Positions 3,605 through 15,732 of a stretch of DNA of 64,000 nt are shown here, piece by piece. The notes beneath the pieces are model-generated. The model was not told the origin of the DNA, did not search any database, and saw only the letters and a program-made list of their open reading frames with translations. Position numbers and translations under genes: made by a program. Position 1 is the first letter of the stretch; each line of letters starts with the position of its first letter. This DNA is from a virus (taxonomy: Duplodnaviria > Caudoviricetes). The stretch spans positions 1,128 through 65,127 of the IMG/VR virus record IMGVR_UViG_2639763196_000002; one strand, given 5' to 3'.

Positions 3605-4128
3605 TCGTCGATGCGCTCCTGCAGCTCGGTCCAGTCGGGCACGGTCAGGCCGGCAAGATCGGGAATCATCAGGCCCGTGCAATGGGCGGTGATGAACTCG
3701 GCGCGCTCTTTGTTAGTGGCGAGTTTTTTCATCACCTTGGTAGCGCGCAGGGCGGGCATTTCCAGGGGCAGTTCCGACAGGTTTCGGCCGGCGGCTTCCA
3801 GGGGTAATAGCAGGTGGACAGGCTGGTCGTGGGTCGTCACGTCCTGTTCTTTCAGGAAGAACGAGGCCGGGCGTGTCGACATTTCGTGTACGTACTGCGC
3901 AATGCTCACGTAGTCCGGGCGCTTGAGTTGGTCGAGCTCTTTTTCCGACAGGCCGGTGGCGAGTTTCGCCAGTTCGAAGAACTGGTCGTCCTCGTCATCA
4001 CCGGCCCGGGCCAGCGCGTCTTTTTGCGCGGCATAGAACAACGGTTTGAGTTGAACCTGCTCGATCATTGCACCGGTGTCGGCGGTGATCGGGGACAGCA
4101 GGATGTGCAACGGTGGCATCCAGGCCAT
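3556..4128 (-). CDS. Tail assembly chaperone (GpE/gp41-like)
   Basis: Likely start MAWMPPLH at 4128 (AAGGA upstream); between tube and tape measure. Confidence 0.85.
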   Translation of the reverse strand: MAWMPPLHILLSPITADTGAMIEQVQLKPLFYAAQKDALARAGDDEDDQFFELAKLATGLSEKELDQLKRPDYVSIAQYVHEMSTRPASFFLKEQDVTTHDQPVHLLLPLEAAGRNLSELPLEMPALRATKVMKKLATNKERAEFITAHCTGLMIPDLAGLTVPDWTELQERIDDFLNKPADFFRSATSK

Positions 4129-4190
4129 GGGGAATTCCTTGTTGAGCGGTGTTGAAAAGTGCAAAAAATCTAAACCTGAGCACGGCCCCT

Positions 4191-4275
4191 GCGGGAGCTG
4201 GCTTGCCTGCGATGGCATCCACTCGATGCTCCAGAGATACCGAGTCGCCTGCATCGCAGGCAAGCCAGCTCCCAC
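4191..4275. repeat. REP doublet (REPIN)
   Basis: Inverted pair GCGGGAGCTGGCTTGCCTGCGATG ... CATCGCAGGCAAGCCAGCTCCCAC, the typical Pseudomonas REP. Confidence 0.85.
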
Positions 4276-4308
4276 CTTGACCGTGCTCGCTTCAGATTGC
4301 GCCGGCCC

Positions 4309-4815
4309 TTAAGGCATCAGCACGGCGCGGCGGGCATCGCCAAGGATGTCGACGCCGTTGAGCACGAACTTCTGGGTGCGCACATCGATATCGATCACCG
4401 AAATGCCATTTTCCAGACGGTTGTAGGTACGGCAGGACAGCTCCAGCGTGGTGGTGGCCTTGTCGCCCATTTTCAGCTTCGCCTCCTCCAGGGATTTGAG
4501 CTTGCCGCCCACGGTGTGGTAGGTGAAATAGGTCTTGCCGTCTTGATCCTGGCCGGCTTCACGCACGTTCAGCAAAATGTCGTCGCCCATGCGCACGCCC
4601 AGGGCCAGCATGATTTGCGGGCCGGCACCTTGCAGCACCAGCTTGGCATTGAGCACCTTGCCGCTCTTGGCCATTTCCTCGGCGATAAAGCGCCCGCCGG
4701 ACATGGCCTCCATGTCGAACTCGATCTTCGGCGGGGTGAATTCTTCCACGGTTGCGGACAACGGCAGGCCTTGAAGGGTGGCCGCAATGGCCTGTCTGAC
4801 TCGGTTGGTAAACAT
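4309..4815 (-). CDS. Tailocin major tail tube protein
   Basis: 168 aa, FII-like, directly after sheath. Confidence 0.9.
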   Translation of the reverse strand: MFTNRVRQAIAATLQGLPLSATVEEFTPPKIEFDMEAMSGGRFIAEEMAKSGKVLNAKLVLQGAGPQIMLALGVRMGDDILLNVREAGQDQDGKTYFTYHTVGGKLKSLEEAKLKMGDKATTTLELSCRTYNRLENGISVIDIDVRTQKFVLNGVDILGDARRAVLMP

Positions 4816-5981
4816 TAGAGAACGTCCTCCAGGAACTGCTCGATGATTTCATCGCGGGCGTTGAGTTGATAAACCATGTGTTCGTTCGGCGCGTAGCGGC
4901 CGTAGTCGATGACGATGAACCAGGTACCGTTCTTGTACTTCTCGACGCTGTTCAGTTCCGGGTGCAGGTACACGCTGCCGCCGGGGATGGTTTCGTCGGC
5001 CACCAGGGTTTGCAGCCAGTCGTTGATACGCTTGACCTCCTGGTCCATGAAGGACTTGGTGAGGTTCTTGGCCATGGCTTTCTGGCCGGCCTTGACCAGC
5101 TTGCGGCTGATGGCATCTTCCAGGCCGACGTAGCTGATGAACTTGCCGGTGATGGAGCGGTTGCCCAACAGCGAGAAGCCGCCGAGGATGGTGCGGGCGT
5201 AGTAGCTCACGCCGTAGCGGTTGAGCAGGTCGCCTTCGGTGGAGGTGTCGAGGATGTTGTACTCGACCACGCGGGAAACGTCCTCGGCGAAGGTCACCTG
5301 GTTACCTGGACTCTCCCACTGCTTGACCTTGGCCAATGCGGCGATGGCCAGCGAGGATGGCGACAGGAACACGTTCTTCTTCGCGGCTTTGGAGTACACC
5401 GACGGCATGTTGTGCACCAGCAGGCAACGGTCGAAGCCGAGGTCGGCCCCGCCCAGTTCGCCGCTGTAGGTCACTTGGTCGGCAACGGACGCGTCCTTGC
5501 CATCCAGTACCACACGGGCCTTGATGCGCTTGCCGAAGGAGGCGAACTCACCAGCCACGGCCTTGGTGCCGGTAAAGCCTGGAGCGCCGATGATGGTCAG
5601 GTCTTCAGGCACGCTGCTCAGGGCCGCCAGGCCCAGCTTGCGACCGGTGACCGGGTCGTTGCCGCCGATCACATTATTGATCGTATCGGCCGGGGTGGCG
5701 CCCTCTTCGACGATCACGACATAGACCGGCACCTTGACCACTTTGAGGATCTGGTACACCGCCTGGAACAAGGTGCCCGACTCAGTGCCGGTAGGGTCCA
5801 GCAGCGCCTGGGCGGTGAAGCTGTTGATGCGAAACGGCGCGTTTTTGGGGATCGACGCATGGGCATTCGGCGCAGTGCCGACCAGGCCGATGACGTTATC
5901 GCCAAGGCCACCCATGGCCTCGGGGGATTCAGTGGCATTCACAGTGATGCCGTTGTGCTCGAAGTTCAGGACTTCTGCCAT
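4815..5981 (-). CDS. Tailocin tail sheath protein
   Basis: 388 aa, FEHNGITV...IGLVGTAP N-terminus and ESPGNQ, GNRS motifs of FI sheaths. Confidence 0.92.
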   Translation of the reverse strand: MAEVLNFEHNGITVNATESPEAMGGLGDNVIGLVGTAPNAHASIPKNAPFRINSFTAQALLDPTGTESGTLFQAVYQILKVVKVPVYVVIVEEGATPADTINNVIGGNDPVTGRKLGLAALSSVPEDLTIIGAPGFTGTKAVAGEFASFGKRIKARVVLDGKDASVADQVTYSGELGGADLGFDRCLLVHNMPSVYSKAAKKNVFLSPSSLAIAALAKVKQWESPGNQVTFAEDVSRVVEYNILDTSTEGDLLNRYGVSYYARTILGGFSLLGNRSITGKFISYVGLEDAISRKLVKAGQKAMAKNLTKSFMDQEVKRINDWLQTLVADETIPGGSVYLHPELNSVEKYKNGTWFIVIDYGRYAPNEHMVYQLNARDEIIEQFLEDVL

Positions 5982-5983
5982 GG

Positions 5984-6157
5984 TTATTCAGCCTTCTTGG
6001 GGGTGGAGTTGAGGACGCTGGTCAGTTCCAGACGGCCGGCGGTGCGCAGGGCGGATGCTTCGACGTCGAGCAGTTCCAGCTCCTCACCGGCGGTAGACCA
6101 ATGGCCGTTGCCGATGGGGAATGGGATGAGGACGGTGTAGGTTTGGCGGGTGGGCAT
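5984..6157 (-). CDS. Small hypothetical tailocin protein (57 aa)
   Basis: Hand translation MPTRQTYTVLIPFPIGNGHWSTAGEELELLDVEASALRTAGRLELTSVLNSTPKKAE*; GGAG upstream; stop 2 nt before sheath ATG. Confidence 0.7.
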   Translation of the reverse strand: MPTRQTYTVLIPFPIGNGHWSTAGEELELLDVEASALRTAGRLELTSVLNSTPKKAE

Positions 6158-6184
6158 GGGTGGAAATCTCCGGGTGGGAAATGC

Positions 6185-6209
6185 AAAAGCCCCTGCGGGG
6201 AGGGGCTTT
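6185..6209 (-). terminator. Intrinsic terminator after fibre module
   Basis: AAAAGCCCCT-gcgggg-AGGGGCTTT hairpin with A/T tracts. Confidence 0.7.
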
Positions 6210-6245
6210 GGGGAGGCGAAAAAAAACCGCTTTCGCGGTAATCAG

Positions 6246-6482
6246 TTATTTCAGGAAATCGGGTTTGGATGGCCAGAGCACTGCGTCTGGATCTTCTCCC
6301 TGATCTGGAATATCACGCAGTTTTTTACGATACTCAGCGAATATGAGCTTATGGGTTTCGAGCATCGGATAGTCTGGCATTGCAGCATAATCACTCGCCG
6401 ACAAGTCTTGATCCCTTGCCTTACGGATCATTTCCCACTTGATAATCGGATGAAGTTCAGCAGGTACAAATAGCGGTTTCAT
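6246..6482 (-). CDS. Tail fibre assembly chaperone
   Basis: 78 aa, RKARDQDLSASDYAAMPDYP...YRKKLRDIP...WPSKP pattern. Confidence 0.8.
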   Translation of the reverse strand: MKPLFVPAELHPIIKWEMIRKARDQDLSASDYAAMPDYPMLETHKLIFAEYRKKLRDIPDQGEDPDAVLWPSKPDFLK

Positions 6483-6491
6483 ATTTTCTCC

Positions 6492-7244
6492 TTAGCCTAG
6501 AGCCAACATCGTTCCCCAATCACCTGGGTTGGTTACAACGCCTGTGCAAGCCCCTGCCAGCATCACCTCAACAACGCCAGTGGAAGAGGTGCGCATTGGG
6601 TGCAGATGGTAATAACTCCCAAAAAGTTCAGTAGGAGAAATAACACTGGAACACCAGCGCCATTTACCTTTTTCAACGCCATTACTCCATGCTCCAGACA
6701 CGTTACCTTCCAAAAGACGCACGAAGGCGCCTACCGTCAGGTAGGAGTTCTGCGGTACTGCACCAGAGCCATTCGCGAGCGCCATATCGACCGTGTATGG
6801 GAACGCAAGCCAAGGACTAACGTCTGACACCGACCACTTCATTTGCCACAGATATACAAACGTGCGCCAATAGTCGCTCGCCCTGATTTCAAAGCTTGGA
6901 TATTGTTCCCGCACATCTGCCTGCACCTGGAGCATGAAATCCACATCAGCTTGCGGGCGTCCGGCCGCTTGAGAAACAGGGGTAATAGTTCGCAGCTTAG
7001 TGGGCGTCACTTCAGCATGAATCCCCCAATTTTCAATCAGTGTTCCGTCGGCGTTGGGGGAAAGATTGAAGTTCTTGGTGACCGCTAACCTTGGGAGTCT
7101 ATTTTTCAACTCCGCCAATTGTGCGTCATACGCCAAGCGGGCATTAGCTATCGCCTTGTCAATTTCTCCGACTTTTCCAGTAATAACGTTAGTTAAGTTG
7201 TTTGCCGCACTAACGACGGCAGCAAGTTGCTGTTCAGTACTCAA
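6492..7244 (-). CDS. Putative tail fibre/receptor-binding subunit
   Basis: Likely TTG start at 7244 with AGGAG; coiled-coil N-terminus, Trp-rich C-terminus; lower GC; between fibre anchor and chaperone. Confidence 0.65.
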   Translation of the reverse strand: MSTEQQLAAVVSAANNLTNVITGKVGEIDKAIANARLAYDAQLAELKNRLPRLAVTKNFNLSPNADGTLIENWGIHAEVTPTKLRTITPVSQAAGRPQADVDFMLQVQADVREQYPSFEIRASDYWRTFVYLWQMKWSVSDVSPWLAFPYTVDMALANGSGAVPQNSYLTVGAFVRLLEGNVSGAWSNGVEKGKWRWCSSVISPTELFGSYYHLHPMRTSSTGVVEVMLAGACTGVVTNPGDWGTMLALG

Positions 7245-8463: not shown

Positions 8464-9455
8464 AGTGTGCGCACCTCCACCTCGACGCCCGTGCAATACG
8501 GGGCCTGGAACGCCGTGCTGACAATCGGCGCCAGCGGTTCGAGGATGTGCAGTTGCGCGGCCCCGGCACTGTGGATGGCGTAGTCGATCCAGCTGGGGTC
8601 CACCCGACCTTCCAGACGGTGGCAGGACTCGGCGTAGTCTTGCAGCAGTTTCTGCGCGGCCACTTGGGTCAGCCCCGAGTCCGGGCCGGCGTTGATCTTG
8701 GCCACCACACGAATTTTATAGGGTTGAATCTGCGCGCCTTGGACGCTGACAAGATCGGTTTCTGGCCGTACATCCGGCCGTGCGAAATGTCGACGTACAC
8801 CGTCAAGCAAGTCGACAGATGGCGTGCCGTCGCCCTCCCTGGAAAGCACGGTGACCATGACTTCCCCCGGTGCGGTGCGGCGAGCGTTGCCGTCCTTGAC
8901 CTGGGCCGCGTAGCCGTCGGGGTCGAAGGTGTAGGTGACCGTGACCACACCGGGCGTCGCGCTTTGTACTTTCACTGCTGGGCGCTCGCCCAAGGTGAAC
9001 ACTTCGCGGCGATACTGCATGCGCGAGCCCGCCGCTGGGGCGTGGGGTGCCAAGTAGTAGCGCAGGCGGGCGTCGTCGTCGCTTTCCAAGGTGGGCGGCA
9101 CCGGCGGGAAAGCCGCCGGGTCGCCTGGGTCGAGCACTTGGCGTTCCAGGCCCATATCGGCCAGGCGCGCATCCAGGTTGCTGCCGGTGGCCCACCACGC
9201 CAGCATCTGCTTGATGCGCGCGTTGTATTTGCGCTCATGGGTTTGCAGGCGCACGCAAAACGCTTCCAGGGCCAGGGTCAGCAGTTCGCTTTCGTTGTCG
9301 AGGCTGACCTGGAGTTTGGCTGCGCTTTGCGGCGCGCGAGTGGCGACGTAGTCGATGACGAACGCTTTGAATTCGGCCAGCAACGGTTCGAACTCATCGA
9401 CCTTAATGATGGCCGGTTCCGCCAGTTGGTTCTGGCCGGGGATCAGCATGCTCAT
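8460..9455 (-). CDS. Baseplate wedge protein GpJ
   Basis: 331 aa, ESDDDARLRY, APGEVMVTVLS, VRPETD motifs. Confidence 0.9.
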   Translation of the reverse strand: MSMLIPGQNQLAEPAIIKVDEFEPLLAEFKAFVIDYVATRAPQSAAKLQVSLDNESELLTLALEAFCVRLQTHERKYNARIKQMLAWWATGSNLDARLADMGLERQVLDPGDPAAFPPVPPTLESDDDARLRYYLAPHAPAAGSRMQYRREVFTLGERPAVKVQSATPGVVTVTYTFDPDGYAAQVKDGNARRTAPGEVMVTVLSREGDGTPSVDLLDGVRRHFARPDVRPETDLVSVQGAQIQPYKIRVVAKINAGPDSGLTQVAAQKLLQDYAESCHRLEGRVDPSWIDYAIHSAGAAQLHILEPLAPIVSTAFQAPYCTGVEVEVRTL

Positions 9456-9784
9456 GTCACGACCTCGAAGGATTGTTGGCGGTTTTTCCAGGTGCCGGCA
9501 AACCGCAGCAGCAGGCCGGCGCCCTGGCGGGTAGCGACAATGACCTGAGGGTCAAAATCGCCAATGCCGTTATGAATGTTGTAGAACGCTTGGGCGGCGT
9601 GGCTTTGGGCGAGGATCAGCAAGTCATCGCCCAGGTTCTGGCCGAGCAATTGCGGGATCAGTGAGCCGTACAGCGGGCGTTTTTGCCGCGTTCCGATGGG
9701 GGTGGTCAGCGCGCGGGTGGCGCGCTGCACAAATTGCAGCCAGTCGTCGACGGCCGCCCCGGTGTTCCTATCGATTCCGAGCAT
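9452..9784 (-). CDS. Baseplate protein GpW/gp25
   Basis: MLGIDRNTG...LTTPIGTRQKRPLYGS. Confidence 0.9.
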   Translation of the reverse strand: MLGIDRNTGAAVDDWLQFVQRATRALTTPIGTRQKRPLYGSLIPQLLGQNLGDDLLILAQSHAAQAFYNIHNGIGDFDPQVIVATRQGAGLLLRFAGTWKNRQQSFEVVT

Positions 9785-9793
9785 GGGGTGTCC

Positions 9794-10405
9794 TTATCGG
9801 GGGCTGATGACGCGTCCTTGATGGTCCACCACCGGGCCGCTGAAGTGCGCGCCGCCGGCATCCAGCAACAGGCTGGTACCGCCGATTTGCAGGGTGATGC
9901 TCTGGGCATTCATGGTCAGGCTGGCAGCGCCGACTTTAATGTCGACCTGTTCACGGGAGCCGCTGACGGTGGTTGGGCCGTTGACCCAGTTGAAGGTATG
10001 GCTGGCATCGTCGTAGTCGCTTTGGGTGCCGTCTTGATGGCGCCGCCGGGTCAGCGTTGCCACGCTGGAGACCGGCGGGAAGCGATCACTGTTGAGGCCG
10101 AACAGGGCCACGGATTGCACACCGCCCTCCCCCCCGCCGTAGTTGAGCAGCAGGCATTGCTCACCCACCGTGGGGATGCGGGTTTCGGTTTGTGCACCGG
10201 CACTGGGGTTGAAAAAGCGGATCGCCGGGGTGAGCAGGTCACCGTGGCTGACCTTGCAGGTGTTGCTGGCCGCATCGACGTGCTGGCAGATGCCGATCCG
10301 GCAGAAGCTCTCGGCGCGGCGGTAGAGGTCCTCAAGCTGGGACTCCATCTCAGCCAGGCGTTCGACGATCGGTCCCAATTGCATGCGTAACAGCGCGTCG
10401 AACAT
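9794..10405 (-). CDS. Baseplate spike GpV
   Basis: AGAQTETRIPTVGEQCLLL, DGTQSDYD motifs. Confidence 0.9.
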   Translation of the reverse strand: MFDALLRMQLGPIVERLAEMESQLEDLYRRAESFCRIGICQHVDAASNTCKVSHGDLLTPAIRFFNPSAGAQTETRIPTVGEQCLLLNYGGGEGGVQSVALFGLNSDRFPPVSSVATLTRRRHQDGTQSDYDDASHTFNWVNGPTTVSGSREQVDIKVGAASLTMNAQSITLQIGGTSLLLDAGGAHFSGPVVDHQGRVISPR

Positions 10406-10408
10406 GGG

Positions 10409-10924
10409 CTACTCCGCCAGTGGCTGGTATTGGGTTGGGTCGTCGATGTTGGAGACGTCCCAAGTGCAGGCAAATAGCGGTTGGCCTGTGGGATCGTCGA
10501 GTAACACCGGCCCCAGATAGAGGGTTTGCGTGAAGGAAACCGTCCAGGTGTCGTAGTCCGTTTCCACGGAAGTGCGCGCAGCGGGAGCGGCGACGATATT
10601 CGCCGGCAAATCGCACTGCGTCTGGGGCAGGTTCCAACGGTTATCCAACACCAGGTCCATGAGTTGGCTGGCCAGGTCGCAGGCATCGAACGGCAATGCA
10701 CCGGGGGCGACCATGGCCCTCAGTGAAATGCTCAGCACGTGAGCCTTGCGCCCTTCGCGAGAGCGAATGCCCGGGCCATTGCCTTCGACCGTGACCTGCA
10801 CACCGGTTTTTTCGGCGTCGCCCTTAAAGTCCTGGTGGCTACCGACCTTGATGTCGGGGAAGGCCGCGTGCAGCACCGCGCCGATGGCCTGGGGCAGTTG
10901 GGATGGCTTTTCGATAAGCGTCAT
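10409..10924 (-). CDS. Putative tail completion/terminator protein
   Basis: Start MTLIEK at 10924; YDTWTVSFTQTLYLG resembles prophage 42825-43355 (YTVWLVEWNQTIYLG). Confidence 0.7.
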   Translation of the reverse strand: MTLIEKPSQLPQAIGAVLHAAFPDIKVGSHQDFKGDAEKTGVQVTVEGNGPGIRSREGRKAHVLSISLRAMVAPGALPFDACDLASQLMDLVLDNRWNLPQTQCDLPANIVAAPAARTSVETDYDTWTVSFTQTLYLGPVLLDDPTGQPLFACTWDVSNIDDPTQYQPLAE

Positions 10925-10947
10925 TTTAAGTAGCGTCCTTGCAACAA

Positions 10948-11286
10948 TTACTGCGGGTCCTGGCGGGAGCCTTGGTTGATCCCGATGCGCTTGGCTGCCC
11001 ACCGTTCATAAAGACCGATGGCCACGTCGGCACCGGCCATGGCGGTCAGGCAACCAATGGCGCCGGCGGTCCAGATCGACATTCCGGCGGCGTAGCACAG
11101 CATCAGGGCGGAAACCCCGCAAACCATGCACGCCCCGGAACGCAGGGCCAGACGGCGGATCAGTGACCAACCGCGGGCGCCCTCCTTGTCGGCCCGCCAC
11201 ATCTCGCCGGATACGCCGCCGATCACTGCCAATACGATCACCAGCCAGATAGGCATTTCCGCTAACGCTTGCTGTTCATTTGTCAT
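10948..11286 (-). CDS. Tailocin holin
   Basis: 112 aa, multiple TM segments, MTNEQQALAEMPIW; AGGAGG SD; homologous to prophage holin at 51360-51704. Confidence 0.88.
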   Translation of the reverse strand: MTNEQQALAEMPIWLVIVLAVIGGVSGEMWRADKEGARGWSLIRRLALRSGACMVCGVSALMLCYAAGMSIWTAGAIGCLTAMAGADVAIGLYERWAAKRIGINQGSRQDPQ

Positions 11287-11356
11287 GTCACGCCTCCTGG
11301 CTGAGCAATAGATAGTCCGTATTTCATTTACAAATGCTTGAGTAGGTAGGCATTCC

Positions 11357-11381
11357 AAAAAGCCCGGTCGCCCGGGCTTTT
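11357..11381 (-). terminator. Intrinsic terminator in the holin leader
   Basis: Minus strand AAAAGCCCGGgcgaCCGGGCTTTTT. Confidence 0.8.
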
Positions 11382-11710
11382 CAGTAATGATGTCCTCGGA
11401 CTTTCGGCGCTACTGGCGCGGTACGGTCCTTTCCTCGATGTTTTTCCGACCACGATCCCTGTCTGCCGGATAACTGCTTCTGGTGCTTTACGCTGCACAC
11501 CCGGGTCAGTTGCCAACCCTCTGAACCGTTAAGGCCGGTTCATCGCTGCCTGTTGTTGAAGCGGTGAAACTAAAGAGCGTCGGCATCCTTGCCGGTGTTG
11601 CCTGGCATCCCTGCCATCGCTTCGATGGCGTCCTTGCCGATGTTGCGTGCCTTCCTTGTCTTCCTTGGCAGCATCCTTGCCGCCTCCACCAGGCCTTGTT
11701 GGCTGGCTTG
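11357..11710 (-). ncRNA. Candidate GGA-rich (Rsm/Csr-binding) leader RNA or sRNA
   Basis: Bounded by a sigma70 promoter and a terminator; about 12 GGA motifs, several in loops (GGCA-AGGA-UGCC, UGGCA-GGGA-UGCCA). Confidence 0.55.
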
Positions 11711-11716
11711 AGATGA

Positions 11717-11790
11717 AGAATATGCATGTATGCATATACAGTCAATGCACAAATGCATTTATTTTTGCTGCGGAAATGCGCATATGCATT
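11717..11790 (-). promoter_or_regulatory. Tailocin operon promoter with overlapping SOS-like box and ATGCAT repeats
   Basis: TTGACT(11745-11740)-17 bp-TATTCT(11722-11717); CTGTATATGCATACAT is one mismatch from the LexA consensus; repeated ATGCAT half-sites also occur upstream of prtR (12648-12672). Confidence 0.7.
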
Positions 11791-11832
11791 AGAAGGCCTA
11801 CTGGCTTGGGGTTTGCCGGTTTTCTGCGGGTG

Positions 11833-11860
11833 AAAAAAAACCCGCACATGGGCGGGTTTC
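11833..11860 (-). terminator. prtR terminator
   Basis: Minus strand GAAACCCGCccatgtGCGGGTTTTTTTT. Confidence 0.8.
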
Positions 11861-11876
11861 TTCTTACGAGTGGGAG

Positions 11877-12611
11877 TTAGCGGGCGTACATACCCCACCA
11901 GAAAACATGACCGAGGATGCTAATCTGCTCGTCCTGGATATCCTGGAAGCTGTAGTCCTCATCGGGGTGTTCATCACGATTGAAGCTGCGCAGGCGGATA
12001 CCGGAAGGCAGGCGGTAGAGCTGTTTAACCCGCAACTGGCCGTTGTGATTGATGGCATACAGGTCACCATCGACGATATCGCCAATGCCGCTCTTGCCGG
12101 CATTGACCCCCACCGTGGCGCCGTCTCGTAACACCGGCAACATACTGTTACCGCGCACCGTCACGCACTTGGCCTGGTCGAACTGCACACCGTTATGCCG
12201 CAGGCTGCGCTTGCCGAACCGCAGGCTGGCCTTTTCGCTTTCCTCGATGACGAATCTTCCTGATCCAGCAGCCAATTCAACCTCGCGCAGAAAGGGGATC
12301 GACACCTCGTCATCATTGACGGGGGTGTCGTCGTCCCACAGGCTTATGTCCTTGAGTTCCGAATGCATCGGGTCGCGCCCGTCATCGCGCAAAGCGCCCA
12401 CTGCTGCGCGCCCGCGCAGGTAATCAGTGCTCACGCGAAAATACTCGGCGATACGGGAGATGTGTTTATCCGACGGATCAACGATCTTGCCGCTGAGGAT
12501 CCGGGACAGTGTGGATTGAGGCACGCCAGTGCGTCGGTGAAGCTCCGTGGGGGAGATCCGGTCGCGGTCCAGCAGCTCTCTTAAGACGATAGAAACGTTG
12601 CGTTTTTGCAT
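11877..12611 (-). CDS. prtR: PrtR-like repressor (HTH-XRE + S24 autopeptidase)
   Basis: HTH (VPQSTLSRILSG), AAG cleavage site, VRGNSMLP and VKQL catalytic Ser/Lys; start MQKRNVS at 12611. Confidence 0.9.
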   Translation of the reverse strand: MQKRNVSIVLRELLDRDRISPTELHRRTGVPQSTLSRILSGKIVDPSDKHISRIAEYFRVSTDYLRGRAAVGALRDDGRDPMHSELKDISLWDDDTPVNDDEVSIPFLREVELAAGSGRFVIEESEKASLRFGKRSLRHNGVQFDQAKCVTVRGNSMLPVLRDGATVGVNAGKSGIGDIVDGDLYAINHNGQLRVKQLYRLPSGIRLRSFNRDEHPDEDYSFQDIQDEQISILGHVFWWGMYAR

Positions 12612-12707
12612 AGCGCGGATAGTGACGGGAGTTTGGGGGGTTGGCAAATGCTAATTTGCATATTTATGCATTAAACATCTGGACCTCACTTAATTCGAAT
12701 CAGAACA

Positions 12708-12723
12708 CTGTATATACAACCAG
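12708..12723. promoter_or_regulatory. LexA (SOS) box
   Basis: CTGTATATACAACCAG in the divergent prtR/Panacea intergenic region. Confidence 0.75.
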
Positions 12724-12845
12724 TTATCGACACTCTATTATTTCGACAGCTTGGTATTGCTGCCGATCAACACCTTGCATGTCGACAACTCAAGGCCTAT
12801 GTATAAAACTCTTTGACAACGTAGCCAGCAACGACGGAGGTGCTC

Positions 12846-13334
12846 ATGGCTTATTCAGCGCTAGCTGTCGCTAACGCCTTCATTGAACGTGCGAAGGAAG
12901 GCAAGCTTTCGGGCCTGACGCCCATGAAGCTGCAAAAACTGCTGTTTTATACGCAGTCCTGGCATTTGCGCGAACGGGATCAGCCCCTCATGGATGATCA
13001 CTTCGCCCGCTGGCAATATGGCCCGGTCATTCCGTCGCTTTACCATGAGTTAAAATCCTACGGTAATCGCCCGGTGACCGCGTTGCTCAGCAACCTGAAG
13101 CCCGACGCCGAAGACATTGTCTTCGTGACACCGAGAGTGCCTGAGAGCGATACCTACACCCATCGTTTGATTGACCGGATCATCAACAAATACGGCAAGT
13201 GGTCTGGCACCCAACTGTCCAACCTCTCCCACGAGGACGGCACAGCCTGGGCCCTCAAGGGCGCCGACGGTTCGGCCATCGACTGGGAAGACATGGCCAC
13301 ACTCATTCACCCAAAGAGCCGCATCCGTGAGTGA
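12846..13334 (+). CDS. Panacea (DUF4065/SocA/GepA-like) antitoxin
   Basis: VANAFI...LTPMKLQKLLFY...WQYGPVIPSLY...LSH...W signature. Confidence 0.85.
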   Translation: MAYSALAVANAFIERAKEGKLSGLTPMKLQKLLFYTQSWHLRERDQPLMDDHFARWQYGPVIPSLYHELKSYGNRPVTALLSNLKPDAEDIVFVTPRVPESDTYTHRLIDRIINKYGKWSGTQLSNLSHEDGTAWALKGADGSAIDWEDMATLIHPKSRIRE

Positions 13335-13698
13335 AGAACTCGACAACCTGGAACTCACCTTGCCCCCCGTGGCAGGGCCTGACCAGGACACCCAAGCCGG
13401 TGGCGAGCAAGCCATAGGCACCGACGATGAAAGAAGCCAGAACCTCAAAGACCAGAAGGCTGAAAGGCAACTGCGCAAGAAATATGCGGGACGTGCGTTT
13501 TGGTTCGCTGCGTGCGGGGTGATCTTCTGGGGGGTCCTGCTGGTGTGGAATGGCTGGTCGACGTATTACTCGGGTAAAGCGCCGTTCTCGGACAATGTGT
13601 TGATTGCCATCACTACGGCGACTTCAATCAACTTGTTTGCGGCGTTTCTTGGGGTGATCAGAGGGTTGTTTCCGGCTAGTGGGCGTAAATCCAAATAG
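13327..13698 (+). CDS. Two-TM membrane protein, putative PanT toxin
   Basis: GTG start overlaps the antitoxin 3' end; acidic N-terminus, then two hydrophobic segments. Confidence 0.65.
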   Translation: MSEELDNLELTLPPVAGPDQDTQAGGEQAIGTDDERSQNLKDQKAERQLRKKYAGRAFWFAACGVIFWGVLLVWNGWSTYYSGKAPFSDNVLIAITTATSINLFAAFLGVIRGLFPASGRKSK

Positions 13699-13843
13699 TC
13701 TGGTCGTACTCATACCCTGACTTCTCTCTATCCGGCATTAAGGTGTGAGCACGCAAAAGTCAGTTAATCATCTTCAAGGCACTGATCGGTTTTTTAGTTT
13801 TTGCCGAGCTTATCCAGCAGCGACCGGCTGCAAAAATCGCACC

Positions 13844-13948
13844 GAGGTGGAGTTTCATCTTGCGGCCAACACCTCGGATTTCCGCCACGTCTGTATTGCG
13901 CAAGACCCGGTCCCGCTTAACCGGGTCGGTGCTATTGACCACCCCGAC
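13844..13948 (-). pseudogene. umuC: Internal umuC fragment
   Basis: VVNSTDPVKRDRVLRNTDVAEIRGVGRKMKLHL aligns with the intact UmuC at ~25793-25897 (VVNITDPVKRDWVLRNTDVAEVWGVGRKMKLHL). Confidence 0.85.
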
Positions 13949-13995
13949 CAGCATCAACTGAAGCCGCACCCGCGGCGGCTTCTGTCGTCGGCCAG

Positions 13996-14649
13996 TCAGC
14001 GGCGCGGAGTCTGCAAGGCGTGGTAGCCGTAATCGGCGCGAGCTTTGCGTAAAGGAACGCCCTCCTCGATAGCCGTACGAATATGTTCTTCGGCCTGGTG
14101 GATTTCTTCGGCCACCTCCAGCACTTCGCTCAGTGAGCCGGCCGGAATCACCACCAGGCCGTCAGCGTCGCCGCGCAACCAATCATCGGGTTGTACCCGC
14201 ACGCCACCCAGCGTAACGGGCGCCTGGATCGCTTCGACACGCACGCGATCCTTGCCGGTGCGCATCCAGTTCCCCCGGGAAAAGATCGGGTAGTTAAGCT
14301 CCAACGCACGGTCGACATCGCGGCAGATACCGTCAATCACCGTCCCGGCCAACTGCTTACGGGCGGCGGTAGAGGTCAGTAAATCGCCCCACACGGTGGT
14401 GTCGAGCCGCGCCTGGTTGTCGATCACTACCACCTGGCCAGCCTCAAGGTCGTCGATGTAGTCACCCACCGAGCCGCCGTCCAGGCCAATAGGGCCGTAG
14501 CGCAGGGTCCAGGCTTTGCCTGTGAGGTTGAACGACCGGTCCAGAGGCATGATGTCGGTGCACTGGCAAACGATTTTCAGGCGGTCCATCGCATCGCTGA
14601 GGTCGGTGCAACTCAGGGCGTCGAGGCGGGTAACAATAGAGGTTTGCAT
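13996..14649 (-). CDS. RraA-family / HMG-aldolase-like protein
   Basis: LSDAMD, VWGDLL, VIDGICRD, GDADGLVVIP motifs. Confidence 0.85.
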   Translation of the reverse strand: MQTSIVTRLDALSCTDLSDAMDRLKIVCQCTDIMPLDRSFNLTGKAWTLRYGPIGLDGGSVGDYIDDLEAGQVVVIDNQARLDTTVWGDLLTSTAARKQLAGTVIDGICRDVDRALELNYPIFSRGNWMRTGKDRVRVEAIQAPVTLGGVRVQPDDWLRGDADGLVVIPAGSLSEVLEVAEEIHQAEEHIRTAIEEGVPLRKARADYGYHALQTPRR

Positions 14650-14676
14650 GATGTGGCCTTCCTTGTGTCCTGTGGG

Positions 14677-15732
14677 TTAACGCGCGGTGGCGTCGGCACT
14701 GAATGCGTGGATATTGTCGACGATCTGGCGTGACGCCGTCCGGATTGCCGTGGTGGTATTGCCAGCGATGTGCGGCGTCAATTGCGCATTGGCAATAGCG
14801 GTCAATGGCGAGTCGAAGCGGTCTTTTTCAAGGGCAAAGGTATCGATGGCGACGGCTTTGATATGCCTGGGAAACTGGCGCATGAAAGCGGCCAACCGGT
14901 GTTCGTCGACGATCCCGCCGCGCGCGGTATTGATGAGGATTGATCCCTGGCGCATCTGCTGGAACTCGGCGGTGCCGAACAAGCCTCGGGTCTGCGGGGT
15001 GAGCGGTACGTGGATCGAGACGATGTTCGCCTCGGCCAGTAACTGTTCAAGACCTGCCCGCCGTTCAAGCCCAAGGCTGTGCGCCACCGGTTCGGTAAAA
15101 CGTTCGGACCCGGTGGCGATCACCTTGATGCCCAGCGCCGCAGCCTTGCGCGCCACCTGCCGGGCAATGCTGCCGGTGCCCACCAGCCCAAGCGTCAGTT
15201 CGGCGTATTCGCAGGCAGGTGCCAAGGAGCCTTTTGCCCAATGGCCGTTGTGCGTTTCAGCGTTGTAGTCATCCAGGTCGCGCGACAGAAACAGCGCCTG
15301 GGCCACGACGTATTCGGCAACAGCGGTCGCGTTGGAGCCCGGTGTGTTGAGGATCGCCACGCCACACTGCTCGCACGCCAGCCGATCAATATGATTGATC
15401 CCTGTGCCCGCCTGGGCAAGGGCGCGCAGTGGCGTGGCCAACGCCGGCGAGGTGGCAGCGCGGATCAGGCCAGCGCCCAACGGGATGTTCAGGCGCGTCT
15501 TGAACACGCTGTAACCCCCGGCCTGACTCACGGCGGCAATAAAGCCAGGTTCGTCATGGCAGTTGATCTCGGCATAGTGAATGCGCGTGCCGTAGTGCTG
15601 CCGGATGCGCTCTTTGTCCGCGAAATAATGCAGGTTGAGGGTGACGCCCAGGCCCAGTTCAAGAAAGCGATCGACTTCCTCAAACAGTAACGGCGGCCCG
15701 GGGGCATCCAGTATCAAGGTGGTAAATGCCAT
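14677..15732 (-). CDS. D-isomer-specific 2-hydroxyacid dehydrogenase
   Basis: GTGINHID, NTPGSN, GTGSIA Rossmann motif, INTARGGIVDE, LTPHIAG. Confidence 0.88.
   Translation of the reverse strand: MAFTTLILDAPGPPLLFEEVDRFLELGLGVTLNLHYFADKERIRQHYGTRIHYAEINCHDEPGFIAAVSQAGGYSVFKTRLNIPLGAGLIRAATSPALATPLRALAQAGTGINHIDRLACEQCGVAILNTPGSNATAVAEYVVAQALFLSRDLDDYNAETHNGHWAKGSLAPACEYAELTLGLVGTGSIARQVARKAAALGIKVIATGSERFTEPVAHSLGLERRAGLEQLLAEANIVSIHVPLTPQTRGLFGTAEFQQMRQGSILINTARGGIVDEHRLAAFMRQFPRHIKAVAIDTFALEKDRFDSPLTAIANAQLTPHIAGNTTTAIRTASRQIVDNIHAFSADATAR

Follow-up and report, generated by a model that had tools for sequence, protein, structure and literature searches.

How is transcription carried into a long bacteriocin operon when the leader RNA in front of it ends in a terminator-like hairpin, and what is a dense run of GGA motifs doing in the same leader? 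These questions are raised by a 64,000-nucleotide (nt) stretch of an IMG/VR provirus record (hereafter, the window). The element it carries is an R-type tailocin. On the minus strand, the gene order is prtR, a 590-nt spacer, the holin gene, and genes for baseplate proteins V and J. We studied the first ~350 nt of the transcribed part of the prtR-holin spacer. Note that positions 8880-15647 are 99.97% identical to a locus in a Pseudomonas paracarnis genome (L001; throughout, L numbers are individual loci compared and G numbers are individual genomes). An earlier reading of the DNA letters, called the original prediction below, had proposed an RNA resembling the Rsm/Csr sponges, transcribed from an SOS-type promoter. 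Our analysis points, with a little less than even confidence, to a composite leader: an antitermination-type RNA that would have acquired Rsm docking sites next to a boxA sequence.

The GGA motifs are strongly biased in strand and position. Between 11357 and 11745, the minus strand has 12 GGA and the plus strand two; for ANGGA the numbers are eight and zero. Seven of the minus-strand GGA motifs fall within 11581-11690. Six of these seven are CA(A/G)GGA, starting at 11679, 11667, 11658, 11636, 11613 and 11591. Hence, the count originally given, about 12 motifs with seven in the shorter interval, is correct for the minus strand. All of the repeat units quoted at the time could also be found. The units present are GGCGGCA-AGGA-UGCUGCC, UGGCA-GGGA-UGCCA, CGGCA-AGGA-UGCCG, GGC-AAGGAC-GCC and CAAGGAAG, the last of these twice, as stated. 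Six units fit the pattern CANGGANG and are packed into 94 nt. Both strands of the window together hold 61 CANGGANG sites, with no more than two in any other 100-nt stretch, and a Poisson estimate for the six-unit cluster is ~1e-8 over the whole window. The parts of the array are as follows.

11684-11581, minus strand: GGA array of six CANGGANG units, 104 nt (motif scan and alignment)
11684-11667, minus strand: array unit 1, a hairpin
11667-11650, minus strand: array units 2-3, linear
11639-11627, minus strand: array unit 4
11628-11614, minus strand: central hairpin of the array
11616-11603, minus strand: array unit 5
11595-11581, minus strand: array unit 6

If the motifs matter they should be conserved, and this had been named as a test of the original prediction. 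Orthologous loci were taken from a PrtR-based scan using one genome per species; the best 80 of 473 relatives, all Pseudomonas, are L001-L080. The six motifs hold their position in L001-L069, from P. fluorescens and gessardii-type species. In L070-L080 (fuscovaginae, batumici, gingeri, agarici and kin) the array is missing, and the promoter and downstream leader can still be aligned. The expectation is thus borne out within the P. fluorescens subgroup and fails outside it. To describe the conservation we aligned 80 of the 82 distinct array sequences from 113 loci; the two omitted are truncated. In units 1, 3, 4, 5 and 6, the GGA and the preceding CA are invariant in all 80 sequences. Unit 2 is looser, with GGA kept in 75 of 80. 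The positions around the invariant bases drift. For example, the N of ANGGA is A in 71, T in six, C in two and G in one sequence for unit 4, and G in 58, A in 19 and C in three for unit 5. The base following GGA in unit 5 is T (57), C (16), A (4) or G (3). Four units are flanked by conserved complementary arms. The 26 proposed stem pairs are paired in 99.1% of cases, versus 15-50% if the partner is slid. One-sided changes in the stems, seven from C-G to U-G and eight from G-U to G-C or A-U, preserve pairing, and two pairs have changed on both sides. The spacer directly after boxA varies freely in the same aligned rows. Hence, conservation of the array is not merely due to lack of time. We conclude that, in this alignment, the pattern in the array is the one that selection acting on A(N)GGA should leave, as for Rsm/CsrA sites.

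The array has a restricted distribution. It was detected in 59 of 401 genomes sampled across the genus, the sampling being of the same size and manner as for a conserved downstream RNA, the core, described below. The array is single-copy in each genome, a partial second copy being the one exception, and lies directly upstream of the core wherever coordinates for both are listed (e.g. G001, G129, G224 and G299). In one genome, a second copy of the core (88% identity) follows a partial copy of the array (its first 64 nt, 88% identity) at G129:C1:2434367-2434615. We also compared 248 core-bearing loci, 153 before a tailocin-type holin gene and 95 before other genes; these are not independent species, and several of our sets overlap. 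At least four CA(A/G)GGA motifs are present in 118 of the 153 holin-context loci and in three of the 95 others. The three exceptions are L019, L067 and L153. The first two are holin-positive with a looser motif, and all three are probably missed holins. The distance from the promoter to the core anchor is 90-145 nt without the array and 177-240 nt with it, so the array is an insertion of ~105 nt. We conclude from these comparisons that the array is confined to tailocin leaders of the P. fluorescens subgroup, where it was inserted into an older leader. The sister clade, L070-L080, has a single GGCA-NNNN-UGCC hairpin at the array position, with a GCAA, GAAA or GAGA loop. The array looks like an amplified form of this hairpin in which the loops have become (A/G)GGA. 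In L030 and L066 the number of units has changed through tandem gain of the CAAGGAAGA type. The repeats gained in tandem are CAAGGAA(A)G(T)GA units: three 12-nt repeats at 3939-4115 of L030 and five 9-nt repeats at ~3990-4010 of L066. Judged by such repeats, slippage is the mode of evolution in the linear part of the array.

How does the array relate to known Rsm-binding RNAs? Its GGA density equals that of rsmZ and rsmY from G001, the near-identical P. paracarnis genome: seven GGA and six ANGGA per 147 nt for the array, eight and six per 135 nt for rsmZ, and eight and four per 118 nt for rsmY. As in the RsmX/Y/Z sponges, A(N)GGA motifs recur at intervals of 9-23 nt, and most of them are carried by short GC-rich hairpins. 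Unlike those sponges, the array lies within an mRNA leader behind a PrtR-operated promoter and is not a free-standing gene. It is also followed by boxA, the 105-nt core and a hairpin that we call P5, amounting to 200 nt of conserved RNA, before any hairpin with a U-run. No Rfam family reaches its gathering score anywhere in the window. With permissive settings, PrrB_RsmZ scored 22.2 bits, versus a cut-off of 44, at 11702-11570 on the minus strand; all else was terminator-driven noise. The families compared were RF00166, RF00195 and RF02144 (RsmX/Y/Z). The genuine rsmZ and rsmY genes of G001 score 122 and 126 bits, and no rsmX match above cut-off was found in that genome. Descent from rsmZ was considered and rejected, with a local alignment score of 25 lying within those of shuffled sequences (maximum 26). 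The palindrome found upstream of GacA targets is TGTAAG-N6-CTTACA. It is visible upstream of rsmZ in G001 and has no match in the window at up to two mismatches. Hence, the array does not belong to the RsmX/Y/Z families, for which an Rfam search had been suggested: there is neither sequence homology nor a GacA box. Note that rsmZ of G001 (G001:C1:370338-370472) is ~10 kb upstream of prtR. The window has neither rsmZ nor a match to the rsmZ region, so the window and the P. paracarnis genome are not collinear past 15647.

Leaders bound by CsrA offer a closer parallel. In E. coli, CsrA controls termination in pgaA, and the Salmonella fim 5' untranslated region has been described as a CsrA-titrating mRNA leader, acting as a sponge. 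The likeness is that GGA sites occur in the 5' untranslated part of an operon, with possible coupling to termination or reciprocal titration. The differences are that here six clustered sites lie ~290 nt from the ribosome-binding site (RBS) and adjoin boxA, and that the operon concerned is one for a phage-tail bacteriocin and lysis. Potential ligands are at hand, since host genomes G001 and G002 each have three CsrA-family genes; none was found in the provirus record. The excerpts of PMC9928087 report that RsmQ and RsmE of strain SBW25 bind AnGGA at the top of hairpins. On paper, therefore, the array is an Rsm-binding-type RNA, embedded in a tailocin leader and outside the RsmX/Y/Z families.

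The sequences immediately after the array bring in transcription elongation. These elements are listed here.

11579-11570, minus strand: boxA-like CGCUCUUUAG (CGCTCTTTAG), starting one nt after the unit 6 hairpin
11550-11446, minus strand: conserved core RNA with four helices, 105 nt (alignment and covariance)
11541-11523, minus strand: core helix P1
11511-11508 (5' arm) and 11476-11468 (3' arm, AGUU in CAGUUAUCC), minus strand: core helix P2, AACU/AGUU
11501-11482, minus strand: core helix P3
11469-11446, minus strand: core helix P4

Lambda nut sites and rrn leaders use boxA with Nus factors; lambda adds a boxB hairpin and its cognate N-type protein, and on rrn leaders NusB/E/A/G assemble together with SuhB. 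A boxA consensus in the leader and close to the promoter, as in nut and rrn-type sites, is present at 11579-11570. Over its first 9 nt it is identical to CGCUCUUUAACAA, the boxA of the rrn leader in the related complete genome G002. That genome has six GCTCTTTAACAA sites, of which five read CGCTCTTTAACAA and are placed 168 nt ahead of the 16S 27F site. The sixth exact copy of the rrn-type 12-mer (L288, G002:C1:5583103-5583114) is not before a 16S gene, and may be another target of Nus factors. The sequence GCTCTTTA occurs in 118 of 118 array-bearing leaders. A looser boxA pattern is found in 67 of 121 distinct leaders that have no array.

The core is the best-conserved part of the leader, and nearly invariant in all 80 loci from the PrtR scan. 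It is also much more widespread than the array. A 184-nt query spanning the core found matches in 217 of 401 genomes sampled evenly across the genus (216 of 400 if G102, flagged as unpublished, is left out; no other result depends on that genome). A covariance model identified the core in nine of 151 genomes sampled across the family, seven being in the genus and two being weak, distant homologues. For structure prediction we aligned 52 sequences, comprising the window and 51 of 59 diverse representatives; the eight omitted are near-duplicates. RNAalifold returned 27 pairs, eight with compensatory changes. One pair in P1 is C-G in 41 sequences, A-U in nine, G-C in one and U-A in one. The P3 hairpin, GGUGUGCAGCGUAAAGCACC, is unchanged in the two distant homologues, where other sequences, again complementary, wholly take the place of P1 and the AACU/AGUU helix. 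The G-U pairs are compatible only with the holin strand. No Rfam family matched the core, even with permissive settings. Note that the core loci from IMG/VR were fetched using an exact 23-nt pattern, so invariance of those 23 nt among them is by construction; the same invariance was seen independently in genome loci found by BLAST. In this lineage, the P4 loop (11461-11456, minus strand) has the sequence ACAGGGAUC, which makes a seventh Rsm-type motif. Elsewhere, the loop is CAGGGU, CAGGCG, CAGAG or a longer insert, so the seventh motif is not a conserved feature of the core.

The company kept by the core is telling. It directly follows the cI repressor gene of the lambdoid phage PseuP_224, heads the leftward early operon of phage Orimi01, and is present in nine other phage records. 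It is also found on 27 Pseudomonas plasmids, almost all named for syringae-group species and 19 of them typed as conjugative. On a P. savastanoi plasmid (L262, 3493-3613) the core is beside a gene for a helix-turn-helix (HTH) regulator. In genome loci L133 and L135, it comes after a repressor-type gene and a promoter with a palindromic operator, and before a gene for a VirB1-like lytic transglycosylase. In PseuP_224, Orimi01 and the P. savastanoi plasmid, the core is right after a repressor-controlled promoter, and terminator-like hairpins follow it. We conclude, from sequence comparison, that the core is an older and widespread leader RNA, common to temperate phages, other tailocins and syringae-group plasmids.

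Eight of the 69 fluorescens-type loci have lost the tail genes and so provide a natural comparison. In these, no more than 3 kb separates recA from prtR, and what is kept is prtR, the leader, the holin gene and at most one more open reading frame (ORF). The remnant loci are L012, L019, L027, L050, L052, L053, L066 and L067 (~3700-6700 in each locus), with the order prtR, array leader, holin, then cinA-like and recA genes. Of 105 core positions, 0-3 differ in the 61 intact loci (mean 0.7) versus 2-92 in the eight remnants (mean 40; one-sided Mann-Whitney p 8e-7). For 108 array positions the means are 4.5 and 10 (one-sided Mann-Whitney p 0.0014). These statistics are to be read with the caveat that the lineages are not independent, L052 and L053 being close relatives. 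The remnant core is deleted in four loci (L027, L052, L053 and L066), has 4-15 changes in three (L012, L019 and L050) and two changes in one. At least three different deletion end points are found among the remnants. Meanwhile, all eight retain the array, with 4-6 units. In L052, L053 and L066, the next element after the array is the holin RBS. Since the core decays and the array persists, constraint on the core depends on the long operon and constraint on the array does so much less.

The core is probably, in the simplest interpretation of these patterns, a processive antitermination site that acts on host machinery. We base this on its promoter-proximal position, the hairpins behind it, the frequent presence of boxA, and its decay with loss of the operon. 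To place this suggestion in context, we examined the remainder of the spacer. Elements of the promoter region, and the flanking genes, are as follows.

12647-11877, minus strand, co-directional with the tailocin operon: prtR, encoding a cI/LexA-like repressor (Pfam HTH_3 and Peptidase_S24)
11859-11833, minus strand: prtR terminator hairpin, then U8 (from sequence; weak matches to leader and terminator models overlap it)
11762-11745, minus strand: upstream PrtR operator-like dyad AAATGCATTTGTGCAT, containing ATAAATGCATTTGT at 11762-11749
11745-11740 (-35) and 11722-11717 (-10), minus strand: sigma-70 promoter TTGACT-17-TATTCT, 9/12 hexamer matches
11741-11726, minus strand: LexA-like string CTGTATATGCATACAT, ending in ACAT rather than ACAG
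11737-11720, minus strand: spacer dyad ATATGCAT-AC-ATGCATAT, between the -35 and -10 elements
11298-10948, minus strand: holin gene, including RBS AGGAGG at 11298-11293, with ATG at 11286 (Pfam Phage_holin_3_5, E 2e-52)

The sigma-70 promoter is present as originally described, on the minus strand at 11745-11717. Overlap with a near-consensus LexA box had also been claimed. The SOS box consensus is CTG-N10-CAG (CTGT-N8-ACAG). The string in question exists and reads CTGT-N8-ACAT. Among 168 distinct orthologous promoters, none has CTGT-N8-ACAG and one has CTG-N10-CAG. Conversely, a TGCAT-type spacer dyad is found in 159 of the 168, TGCAT abuts the -35 hexamer in 165, and an upstream operator of type A[TA]AAATGCAT[TA][TA] (ATAAATGCATTT-type) occurs in 114. 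We therefore rejected the LexA box in favour of PrtR-type TGCAT dyads. The adjacent prtR gene, with HTH and S24 domains, is 100% identical to that of L001. According to the excerpts of PMC12066065, binding of PrtR1 to its operator has been demonstrated in P. protegens CHA0, where a chromatin immunoprecipitation sequencing (ChIP-seq) peak for PrtR1 contains an ATAAATGCATTTAC motif at the tailocin promoter, 391 bp upstream of hol. The window operator, ATAAATGCATTTGT at 11762-11749, matches the CHA0 peak motif. Contrary to a PrtR-only reading, a LexA site is stated to lie upstream of the SBW25 tailocin operon in the excerpts of PMC8544851. Our comparisons suggest that the promoter is PrtR-operated and responsive to DNA damage, probably not through LexA. 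Hence, the damage-responsive promoter first proposed is supported, with PrtR replacing LexA.

Between the promoter and the holin gene, three further RNA elements complete the leader.

11706-11689, minus strand: P0, the leader 5' hairpin CCAGCC AACAA GGCCUGG, just past the predicted start near 11710
11429-11398, minus strand: P5 hairpin, with inner GCGC-CAGUA-GCGC stem-loop (folding and comparison)
11381-11357, minus strand: terminator-like hairpin AAAAGCCCGGGCGACCGGGC, then U5 (whole element AAAAGCCCGGGCGACCGGGCUUUUU; sequence and folding)

The P0 helix is 98.3% paired across the array alignment, one pair having changed on both sides, and other leader types have an equivalent hairpin, GCCGG...CCGGC, ahead of the core. 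Conservation of P5 holds for tailocin leaders and extends to some further contexts (L114 and L116). The terminator-like hairpin is 70 nt before the holin ATG (11286) and forms in the minimum-energy fold. The z score for the fold energy of the whole leader, relative to shuffles, is -2.80. An intrinsic terminator 70 bp before the holin gene had been predicted; the hairpin and its U5 tract are present at 11381-11357 and were not called by a terminator scan. The ~350-nt leader had been described as non-coding and this appears sound. A coding reading was rejected, since minus-strand ORFs spanning the array start upstream of the promoter and orthologues differ by 1-, 2-, 3- and 12-nt indels, leaving no conserved frame. 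A short ATGAACCGGCCTTAA reading frame is likewise disrupted by 2-nt inserts. From the ORFs, no gene could be assigned between prtR (12647-11877) and the holin gene, consistent with the earlier remark that activator and antiterminator genes are absent from this interval.

Taken in order, the leader comprises P0, the GGA array, boxA, the core, P5, the terminator-like hairpin and the holin RBS. In our proposal, PrtR would hold the promoter off until DNA damage leads to RecA-stimulated cleavage of PrtR, and the leader would then be transcribed. The core, together with boxA where present, would make RNA polymerase resistant to termination, so that it passes the leader hairpin into the long operon. 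In this respect the core may be likened to nut or put, which lambdoid phages have after their early promoters. On the nascent leader, the array would give RsmA/E/I dimers a place to dock, beside boxA. Read-through, holin expression or both would then depend on the free Rsm pool, and so on Gac/Rsm status, giving an AND gate of DNA damage and Gac/Rsm state. As a side effect, strong induction would titrate Rsm. The direction of the effect could be either, since unit 3 pairs with boxA in the minimum-energy fold and so Rsm binding could free or mask boxA equally. The boxA and core, which were not part of the original prediction, are a candidate answer to the puzzle raised there of a terminator without an antiterminator gene. 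A bolder version is improbable as a whole. It would have the tailocin lineage build a private Rsm-binding RNA into an SOS-induced leader, with Rsm deciding read-through by a put- or nut-like core that needs no dedicated protein. The burst of leader would strip Rsm from targets elsewhere, and the core would represent a new class of RNA for processive antitermination in phages, tailocins and conjugative plasmids.

Known antitermination RNAs resemble this arrangement in part. Antitermination by put involves the beta-prime zinc-binding domain of RNA polymerase and reaches terminators far downstream. In the excerpts of PMC9378689, HK022 put is an RNA that has two stem-loops in ~70 nt and needs no partner to act on RNA polymerase. 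Like putL and putR, the core is a cis RNA just past a repressor-controlled early promoter, before terminators and a long operon, with no dedicated antiterminator gene nearby. Unlike put, the core has four helices in ~105 nt and is commonly accompanied by boxA; note that this comparison is one of architecture. Hence, on these features, the core agrees with put in position and not in size or architecture. The likeness to lambda nut and rrn leaders is that boxA, CGCUCUUUA, identical to the rrn boxA of the clade, is upstream of a structured RNA just after a promoter. The differences are that no N-like gene lies between prtR and the holin, that the structured part is much larger than the boxB of nut, and that boxA is lacking in some leader variants.

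Several observations weigh against a composite leader. Covariation in the array stems is thin, because the sequences are 85-100% alike and come from close relatives, and the fold energy of the array is no better than that of shuffles (z -1.38). The array is missing from 35 of the 153 holin-context core loci and, by genome, occurs in 59 compared to 217 for the core. Since it is absent from many tailocin leaders with the same core, the array is an accessory and not a required part. Some tailocin leaders are entirely without boxA. A consensus terminator scan of 11000-12900 returned no terminators, missing the obvious prtR terminator too, so that our terminator reading rests on sequence and RNA folding. 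In non-tailocin contexts, a similarly placed hairpin (ACUGA-hairpin-UUGGGAA), identified by eye, has no U-run. Across four sequencing runs (Logan contigs), one of them labelled RNA, depth was flat over genes and spacers, and the RNA-labelled run resembled DNA. No mention of a leader RNA, terminator, untranslated region or antitermination was found in the excerpts of PMC12066065. Finally, the array is kept in remnants where the core is deleted, and a role that does not need the core, for instance as a decoy or in direct control of the holin, would account for this at least as well.

Of such roles, a decoy acting in trans, the main reading of the original prediction, is the one that best withstands the evidence, and we still think it unlikely. 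Here the leader, abundantly made once PrtR is cleaved, either as a ~350-nt terminated RNA or as the 5' end of holin mRNA, would sequester RsmA/E/I and de-repress the Gac/Rsm regulon of the damaged cell. A density of GGA equal to that of rsmZ and rsmY, with units on hairpins, is what such an RNA would need, and the hairpin with U5 could yield a discrete and stable product. Retention of the array in all eight remnants, of which four have no core and three of these no terminator, also implies a value independent of the antitermination part. However, no terminator of its own directly follows the array, which in three remnants is only a 5' untranslated region. The absence of a GacA box, the sub-threshold Rfam score and the presence of one copy per genome, apart from the partial copy noted above, are further difficulties. 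Furthermore, a cell inducing holin is about to lyse, leaving little time for global de-repression.

That the array has nothing to do with Rsm is somewhat less easy to credit. It could be an amplified GC hairpin module, used for example for spacing or pausing before boxA, for Hfq binding to A-R-N-rich AAGGAAGACAAGGAAG, or for masking of boxA by unit 3. The GGA-less GGCA-NNNN-UGCC hairpin at the same place in the sister clade does indicate that the hairpin predates the GGA loops; the minimum-energy pairing of unit 3 with boxA, and the purine-rich linear units, also speak for a role outside Rsm. What this leaves unexplained is the invariance of A, G, G and A in five units, while N and the next base drift, and the fit of all six units to CANGGANG.

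We attach similarly low probability to the idea that the core is not an antiterminator. Instead, it might be an attenuator that senses a ligand or factor, in the manner of a riboswitch, with the downstream hairpin as its output, or an element for RNA stability or processing. Covarying stems that join conserved unpaired stretches, with a terminator-like hairpin downstream, are the usual layout of a riboswitch, and from the sequence CCCGGG of the core could pair with the 5' arm of the terminator. Yet the core occurs right after repressor-controlled promoters in very different mobile elements, frequently has boxA attached, and decays once the long operon is lost even though the holin remains. In addition, the supposed output hairpin has no U-run outside tailocins.

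Direct translational control of the holin, with Rsm dimers bridging array units and the GGA in the Shine-Dalgarno sequence AGGAGG to delay lysis until Rsm is titrated, independently of read-through, is a little less likely again: the holin RBS does contain GGA, the array is ~50-90 nt from it in L052, L053 and L066, and holin over-expression is toxic in SBW25 (excerpts of PMC8544851), but in intact loci ~290 nt, with a folded core and a terminator-like hairpin, lie between, and the GGA of AGGAGG is generic to Shine-Dalgarno sequences and present in array-less leaders too.

Two neighbouring reading frames lie outside this argument. Divergent from prtR, 12840-13334 (plus strand) encodes a 164-amino-acid protein with a SocA/Panacea antitoxin domain (Pfam E 5e-23). 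An overlapping ORF at 13171-13698 (plus strand) encodes 175 amino acids with a hydrophobic C-terminal part. The two may be a Panacea-type toxin-antitoxin pair beside the tailocin.

The tailocins of P. protegens CHA0 and SBW25 ('prophage 1') share the prtR-then-hol order, a ATAAATGCATTT motif far upstream and induction by DNA damage; the difference is that the excerpts of both papers (PMC12066065 and PMC8544851) treat the intergenic region as a promoter region. The CHA0 operator is 391 bp upstream of hol versus ~470 bp here, a gap of ~80 bp that comes near the length of the array (104 nt). Judged from operator distance, the CHA0 leader may lack the array. The excerpts of PMC12066065 place the P. 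protegens tailocin under PrtR1 and indirect MvaT/MvaV (H-NS-type) control, propose an unidentified activator, and name Gac/Rsm only as a P. aeruginosa example in the background. Rsm sites in the tailocin leader are not mentioned in the excerpts of PMC8544851. More widely, a full-text search confined to the articles proper found no account of a tailocin leader RNA, of Rsm sites within one, or of antitermination in these gene clusters.

The core is absent from Rfam, unmentioned in the papers searched, and spread over phages, tailocins and plasmids. Should the core prove to be an antiterminator, the passage of polymerase through leader terminators in the absence of an N- or Q-like gene would be accounted for. 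The array could bear on the finding that loss of gacS partly relieves plasmid costs involving the SBW25 tailocin holin (excerpts of PMC8544851). Tailocin production kills the producer, so the time of firing is central to bacterial competition. An Rsm docking array, if our proposal is correct, would be a direct link from the Gac/Rsm switch in density response and lifestyle to the release of a suicidal weapon.

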